The notes below the pieces were generated by a model, which saw only the letters and a list, made by a program, of their open reading frames with translations, ran no database searches and was not told the origin of the DNA. Shown in pieces: positions 6,429-6,582 of a stretch of DNA of 6,863 nucleotides (within the stretch, counting starts at the first letter, position 1; each line of letters begins with the position of its first letter). Origin of the DNA: a virus. Taxonomy: Duplodnaviria; Heunggongvirae; Uroviricota; Caudoviricetes. The stretch lies in IMG/VR virus record IMGVR_UViG_2617271072_000002. One strand, given 5' to 3'. Made by a program: the position numbers and the translations under genes.

Positions 6429-6444
6429 CGGAACCAGATATAAT
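6418..6444 (+). promoter_or_regulatory. Candidate sigma70-type promoter upstream of the small low-GC ORF
   Basis: TTGGCA (6418-6423), 15-nt spacer, perfect TATAAT (6439-6444), lying in an AT-rich stretch. The spacer is at the short end of the usual range. No experimental support. Confidence 0.25.
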
Positions 6445-6480
6445 TTGTCTTTAAGTTTGTTATCAACTGAAGGGAAATCT

Positions 6481-6582
6481 ATGGGTCTGTTACATGCCAT
6501 TATAGGTAATGCCGGTGAAATTAATGCATCAGATGCACAACAGGAATTAGGGGCTGTTTTAGGTGAGGGAGAAAATGGGTAA
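6481..6582 (+). CDS. Small low-GC ORF (MGLLHAIIGNAGEINASDAQQELGAVLGEGENG), likely truncated by the IS1 insertion
   Basis: ATG at 6481 preceded by an AAGGGA ribosome-binding site. Codon usage is AT-rich, unlike neighbouring phage genes. Its stop codon (TAA 6580-6582) lies inside the IS1 terminal repeat, so the native C-terminus is probably lost. The longer track ORF 6400..6582 overlaps the tape measure end and is less likely. Confidence 0.3.
   Translation: MGLLHAIIGNAGEINASDAQQELGAVLGEGENG

Follow-up and report, generated by a model that had tools for sequence, protein, structure and literature searches.

A probable moron encoding a bacterial PH-domain protein, interrupted by IS1, between the tape measure and gpN-like genes of an SfV-like Escherichia coli prophage

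The DNA analysed here (the window) is the whole 6,863 nt stretch of the IMG/VR virus record IMGVR_UViG_2617271072_000002, and it derives from an SfV-like prophage of Escherichia coli. The complete copy of this prophage has an HK97-type head, a Mu-type tail and lambdoid early genes that include a Q antiterminator, and it adjoins tRNA-Thr after proA. The window is colinear with strain EC_J_9 (99.85 % identity), and its segment from 3800 to 6424 is 97–98 % identical to SfV, SfI, SfII, vB_EcoM-689R6 and SKA5, with none of these matches extending past 6424, where the tape measure gene finishes. A gpN-like DNA circularization gene (Pfam DNA_circ_N) is the conserved tail gene that comes next. In EC_J_9 the order annotated by RefSeq is tape measure, 33-aa PH domain-containing protein, IS1B-family transposase, 100-aa PH domain-containing protein and DNA circularization protein. 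The features of this junction that fall within the window are listed in Table 1.

Table 1. Features at the right end of the tape measure gene and at the IS1 insertion (window coordinates)
Feature	Position	Strand	Basis or remark
Tape measure gene tail, left edge of the mosaic cassette	6389–6428	+	Drop in identity between prophages with and without the PH gene
Sigma-70-like promoter, predicted	6418–6444	+	Consensus match plus conservation in Edwardsiella cassettes
Shine–Dalgarno sequence, GAAGGGA	6469–6475	+	Read from the sequence; 5 nt before the ATG at 6481
Truncated PH-domain gene	6481–6582	+	Codons 1–32 native (6481–6576); codon 33 and stop from IS1
IS1 target-site duplication, left copy, AGAAAATG (8 bp)	6570–6577		Second copy at the far IS1 end in EC_J_9
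IS1, cut by the end of the window	6578–6863	−	Colinear with EC_J_9, which has an IS1B-family transposase there

Comparison of the window with EC_J_9, B1S11, 2196 and MINF_2E shows private homopolymer indels of 1–2 nt at positions 67, 365, 3439, 5003, 5108–5109, 5896 and 6687, one of which lies inside IS1. These indels split the sheath gene into two ORFs (2329–3465 and 3371–3826) and the tape measure gene into three (4593–5078, 5137–5913 and 6033–6428), and they are shared by none of the complete RefSeq genomes; they are probably assembly errors rather than signs of gene decay. A length polymorphism of 120 bp is also seen in the tape measure genes of prophages that are otherwise similar (1,836 bp at L001 7394–9229 versus 1,956 bp at L002 7274–9229).

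The ORF downstream of the tape measure gene is translated as MGLLHAIIGNAGEINASDAQQELGAVLGEGENG followed by a stop codon, and in EC_J_9 the same 33-aa ORF is the one that RefSeq annotates as a PH domain-containing protein. Its last sense codon (GGG, glycine) and its TAA stop are both supplied by the terminal inverted repeat of IS1, GGTAATGACTCCAACTTATTGAT, at 6578–6600, and the transposase of the element is encoded on the minus strand. IS1 is 768 bp long in EC_J_9, with the first 286 bp inside the window, and it entered an AT-rich target immediately after codon 32, so that the window keeps a 33-codon stub and the other 93 codons lie beyond the element. The features that define IS1 are all present (terminal repeats, a length of about 768 bp, an InsAB′ transposase and a target duplication of 8–9 bp), and with its canonical terminal repeat and 8 bp duplication there is nothing unusual about this case of insertional inactivation. 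The classical target duplication of IS1 is 9 bp, and 8 bp is a known variant. When IS1 and one copy of AGAAAATG are removed from the EC_J_9 sequence, the result is exactly that of strain MJ-T over 1,200 bp. We considered whether the IS1-free allele might be the derived form, and this is excluded by the target duplication. The insertion is recent and inactivates the PH gene, and the same insertion is present in four complete genomes, EC_J_9 among them. IS1 may also have a polar effect on the baseplate genes that follow, if Q-dependent antitermination does not override it. We note that the 100-aa 3′ fragment in EC_J_9 (L001 10133–10435) is annotated by RefSeq from a TTG start inside the IS1 end, and that this end has an outward-facing TTGGCA, such that a hybrid promoter is conceivable.

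In strains lacking IS1 at this position (730V1, MJ-T and others) there is a single 378 bp gene encoding a protein of 125 aa. The sequence-only reading had not recognised the product and had proposed that the peptide be searched together with its extension from IS1-free relatives; such a search assigns it to the Pfam family bPH_1 (PF08000; E-value 3e-48, 163.2 bits against a cut-off of 27.7), with the match covering profile positions 2–121 of 122. The stub in the window, searched alone, reaches 13.7 bits, which is below the cut-off of 27.7. The intact protein also matches the PHb1 (PF08000/DUF1696) structures 3HSA of Shewanella loihica and 3DCX of S. amazonensis (E-value ~1e-39), with which it shares its length of ~125 aa, and it retains the conserved PHb1 core residues. 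From the matches to 3DCX and 3HSA it would be expected to adopt a PH fold and to assemble into pentameric rings, as described for PHb1 (Xu et al., 2010; PMC2817789). The crystallized PHb1 proteins are chromosomally encoded, whereas the copy described here is phage-borne and occupies a slot in a tail operon, with 32 native residues in the window.

The ORF in the window is the first quarter of a PF08000/bPH_1 gene and not a gene of its own. A longer in-frame ORF starting from an ATG at 6400 was considered and rejected, as part of it overlaps the tape measure gene and it matches no annotated relative. That the 33 codons might themselves constitute a genuine small-protein gene has something to recommend it, in that they are provided with a start codon, a Shine–Dalgarno sequence and a promoter-like motif and are called as a CDS by RefSeq in EC_J_9; however, both the last sense codon and the stop come from the terminal repeat of IS1, the sequence is identical to codons 1–32 of the 125-aa gene that is restored by removing IS1, and the stub does not reach the Pfam threshold and is without the PH fold, so we regard the idea as scarcely credible. 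The N-terminal residues of the family, including helix α0, have been described as non-conserved (Xu et al., 2010; PMC2817789), and the stub appears to cover this region alone. The PH gene in the window is presumably dead, because the stub comprises only the N-terminal region without the PH fold.

The identity of the PH protein to homologues from different bacterial phyla is ~60 %. Among cellular homologues the nearest is that of Edaphovirga (72 % identity), where the gene is chromosomal and lies among metabolic genes, and homologues in Photobacterium and many Firmicutes are ~60–65 % identical; no other E. coli member of the family was found among the best 120 matches listed. Several relatives reside in temperate phages, where they occupy accessory positions. 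In Lactococcus phage ul36 a family gene lies between the integrase and CI repressor genes, in a 186-like Vibrio phage it is located between CI and a SIR2-like gene and beside the integrase, and in Microbacterium phage Min1 it is at the end of the genome; the occurrence of PHb1 in phage lysogeny modules, represented by ul36 ORF124 and Min1 orf77, has been pointed out previously (Xu et al., 2010; PMC2817789). A survey of the nearest ORFs at 67 IMG/VR loci revealed HTH repressors (8), S24 repressors (6), tyrosine integrases (7), serine integrases (4), Ltp exclusion lipoproteins (4), endolysin domains (9) and one Abi_2 protein, and many of these loci are at the ends of predicted prophages, where some of the neighbours may be host genes. 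When the literature on PF08000/DUF1696 or bacterial PH domains was searched in connection with phages, prophages and morons, only Xu et al. (2010) was relevant; no phage function was reported for PH-domain proteins and no paper described this particular moron.

Of 5,426 complete genomes, 879 carry the 3′ terminus of this tape measure gene and 28 the PH gene, with 24 copies intact and four carrying the IS1 insertion; all of the 28 belong to the 879, so that ~97 % of related E. coli prophages are without it. Among complete E. coli genomes, 559 have an empty tape measure/gpN junction, and the spacing between the two genes in APEC O78 is just 60 nt. Since the gene is found in few prophages and the empty junction is common, the PH gene is an optional extra rather than one of the tail genes. 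Synteny at this position had been suggested as a check, and the relatives lacking the PH gene do run from the tape measure gene straight into the gpN-like gene. The possibility that the next conserved tail gene simply begins with this segment, which had been named as the outcome that would count against a moron, could be entertained because the segment immediately follows the tape measure gene in the same orientation, but it has next to no chance of being right: the gpN-like gene directly follows the tape measure gene in SfV, SfI, SfII, APEC O78 and the 559 genomes with the empty site, and the composition of the PH gene is foreign.

Other DNA is occasionally found at the same place. E. coli 23CRST031 (L060 1621–1860) has a different ORF of 79 aa, without a Pfam match, in the slot between the tape measure and gpN-like genes, and the variable occupancy of this junction suggests that it is a recurrent cargo site. 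In an SfV-like prophage of E. coli strain E2 (L145 4027–4090) the tape measure gene is followed by a third, unrelated sequence of 49 nt, then by IS1A and then by the chromosomal gene corA, and this junction looks like an independent IS1-associated truncation of a prophage at the same site. We also note a 70-kb record described as a plasmid (NZ_AP023208.1; pMTY18781-3, L146) that carries the whole prophage including the PH gene. Its interpretation as a phage-plasmid was rejected, as it carries gpt, frsA, crl, phoE, proBA and tRNA-Thr beside the integrase, and it is probably a mislabelled or misassembled segment of a chromosome; the record shows that the prophage integrates beside tRNA-Thr and encodes antiterminator Q.

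The edges of the added DNA can be placed by comparing prophages with and without the PH gene. These are 97–100 % identical in the region 40–300 nt before the tape measure stop, but only 30 of the 40 nt up to and including that stop are identical, and identity recovers at a hairpin before the gpN-like gene; the net gain from the intact unit is ~433 bp. The base composition drops sharply after the tape measure stop, just as the sequence-only reading had described (38.9 mol% G+C at 6429–6577 versus 54.7 mol% at 1–6428), and the whole PH coding sequence (37.8 mol% G+C, 28.6 mol% at third codon positions) departs likewise from both the tape measure gene (52 and 57 mol%) and the gpN-like gene (57 and 62 mol%). 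Directly 3′ of the stop codon of the intact gene, outside the window and beyond IS1, is an intrinsic terminator with a UUCG loop (GCCCAC-UUCG-GUGGGC-U6; z = −3.35). Prophages lacking the PH gene have a related hairpin, UCCCACUCCGGUGGGA, followed by U6 in the same place; a terminator at this junction is therefore either older than the cassette or exchanged along with it, and is not unique to the PH cassette. In APEC O78 this G+C-rich, terminator-like hairpin with its U-run (L003 3252–3275, equivalent to L002 9686–9707) lies inside the late tail operon. Absence from the same position in close relatives, a differing base composition and a terminator of its own, the last judged by sequence, are all features expected of a moron.

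A near-consensus promoter motif had been reported in the segment, and it is indeed present, beginning 11 nt upstream of position 6429, from which the segment had been counted. The −35 box TTGGCA (6418–6423) falls in the terminal codons of the tape measure gene, whose TGA stop is at 6426–6428, and is separated by a 15 nt spacer from the −10 box TATAAT (6439–6444); the −35 box is part of the tape measure tail, which moves together with the cassette, and the added DNA holds the −10 box. A first scan for promoters did not list the site because only spacers of 16–18 nt were allowed. In a re-scan of both strands of the whole window with spacers of 15–19 nt, the site scores 11/12 and is the sole match of at least 10/12, the number of matches of at least 11/12 expected from dinucleotide shuffles being 0.067 per window, or ~3e-4 per 60 nt interval on one strand. 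The 15 nt spacer is suboptimal for sigma-70, and a second −10 candidate, TAATTT (6441–6446), overlaps TATAAT at a spacing of 17 nt. Transcription is predicted to start at about 6451. The ribosome-binding site and the ATG that were said to follow are both found, the ORF running 5 nt past the right-hand limit of 6577 that had been given to the segment, and GAAGGG is kept in all four of the cassettes compared (E. coli and Edwardsiella). The 5′ leader (6429–6485) has no significant RNA structure (z = −0.23), a scan of 6300–6863 against Rfam gave no match at E-values up to 1, and a search of the same interval for repeats gave short chance matches only.

Cassettes related to that of E. coli are present in Edwardsiella, with the PH gene in the same slot between the tape measure and gpN-like genes in phage EPP-1 and in prophages of E. 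anguillarum, E. hoshinae and one further assembly. The Edwardsiella PH proteins are 88–91 % identical to that of E. coli, and the genes are 79–81 % identical at the nucleotide level with synonymous sites saturated and dN/dS values of 0.02–0.04, indicating strong purifying selection. The Edwardsiella tape measure gene ends ~150 nt earlier than the E. coli type, and what remains there of the E. coli-type tape measure tail, 5′ of the PH gene, is non-coding. Within this remnant, TATTGGCAGAT, which contains the −35 box, and GATATAA, which includes part of the −10 box, are invariant among E. coli, E. hoshinae, E. anguillarum and EPP-1, and the 15 nt spacing of the boxes is maintained, whereas the sequence between and beside them diverges and contains indels. 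The Edwardsiella −10 box is TATAAC, without the key final T, and TAACCT (TAATTT in E. coli), at the 17 nt spacing, may be the hexamer that is actually used. Conservation of the boxes in spite of saturated synonymous sites argues that both the promoter and the protein are likely to be functional. As an aside, the tail proteins of the E. hoshinae prophage (L009 1300–6850) are 91–100 % identical to those of E. coli and its PH cassette is 79 % identical in nucleotide sequence, which points to a near-identical phage backbone shared across genera and an old, separately evolving allele of the cassette.

These observations bear on whether the PH gene has a promoter of its own. It is conceivable that the gene was added but that the promoter motif is inactive and expression occurs only within the Q-dependent late tail operon, where the product might, for example, be a non-essential virion component or assembly accessory. 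The spacer of only 15 nt, the TATAAC of Edwardsiella and the location of the gene inside the tail operon in the same orientation are all compatible with late expression alone, and the overlap of the −35 box with coding sequence could explain its conservation in E. coli. However, in Edwardsiella the −35 block is non-coding and yet invariant while its neighbours diverge and synonymous sites are saturated; furthermore, the promoter match is unique in the window, the gene is missing from the great majority of related E. coli prophages, and the family occurs in the lysogeny modules of other temperate phages. Purely late expression thus seems quite unlikely to us. The segment is very probably the 5′ part of a moron that lies between the tape measure gene and the gpN-like gene in an SfV-like prophage of E. 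coli and has been inactivated by IS1. Morons are defined as accessory units transcribed in the lysogen (PMC3594210), and the cassette probably fits this definition given its low G+C content, conserved boxes, terminator and purifying selection. The activity of the promoter is deduced from sequence and conservation. The two alternatives offered in the sequence-only reading, a moron on the one hand and the beginning of a foreign gene cut by IS1 on the other, appear to be correct together, as seen from the relatives with an empty site and the intact 125-aa gene.

The closest parallel is the gene 15 moron of phage HK97 (Juhala/Hendrix; Cumby et al., 2012, PMC3594210), which is likewise a single small gene in the tail operon adjoining the tape measure gene. 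Both are carried by lambdoid, Q-controlled phages and are absent from close relatives, and both have a differing G+C content and their own promoter-like and terminator elements. The HK97 gene precedes the tape measure gene, however, whereas the PH gene follows it, and the two products are different kinds of protein: gp15 is an inner-membrane protein, whereas the PH protein is soluble and has no transmembrane segment (maximum 19-residue Kyte–Doolittle hydropathy, 0.58), and so does not share the transmembrane character of HK97 gp15 and Sie-type exclusion proteins. Solubility is also a property of the crystallized homologues (PMC2817789). Superinfection exclusion has been demonstrated for gp15.

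If the cassette is a moron, then in IS1-free lysogens the PH gene would be expressed through a promoter of its own at a time when the late operon is shut off, and during lytic growth the Q-modified RNA polymerase would read through the PH terminator. The protein would assemble into pentameric rings, as do the Shewanella homologues to which it is ~60 % identical, and would benefit the lysogen, most plausibly at the cell envelope, through protection from stress or exclusion of incoming phages. A possible link to envelope stress is provided by Bacillus subtilis YozO, which is in the sigma-W regulon (Xu et al., 2010; PMC2817789). The benefit to the lysogen is a conjecture, because a search of PADLOC-DB with the PH protein gave no match to a defence system at E-values up to 1, its PHROG family has no annotated function, it lacks a transmembrane segment and its ~60 % identity across phyla is unlike that of fast-evolving defence genes.

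What is described here is a tidy but ordinary instance of a gene gained and lost by a phage; there is nothing new about the protein family, about morons or about disruption by IS1, and both fragments already carry a RefSeq label. Since its copy of the gene is presumably dead, the window has little direct consequence by itself. In annotation, the 33-aa and 100-aa PH domain-containing CDSs should be merged into one IS1-disrupted pseudogene. In its intact form the allele offers a clean, natural example of a probable moron within a tail operon of the SfV type. A bolder interpretation, which we think unlikely to prove right, is that PHb1 is a protective factor expressed by lysogens and recruited repeatedly into accessory slots by unrelated temperate phages; as a soluble or peripheral-membrane cap it could prevent incoming related phages from delivering their genomes, or it could buffer envelope stress, and if true this would be the first function for PF08000. 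The four complete genomes with this IS1 are natural knock-outs for which near-isogenic strains with the intact gene exist, and the EC_J_9/MJ-T pair, which match exactly across the locus once IS1 is removed, is a test bed for the function of PF08000.
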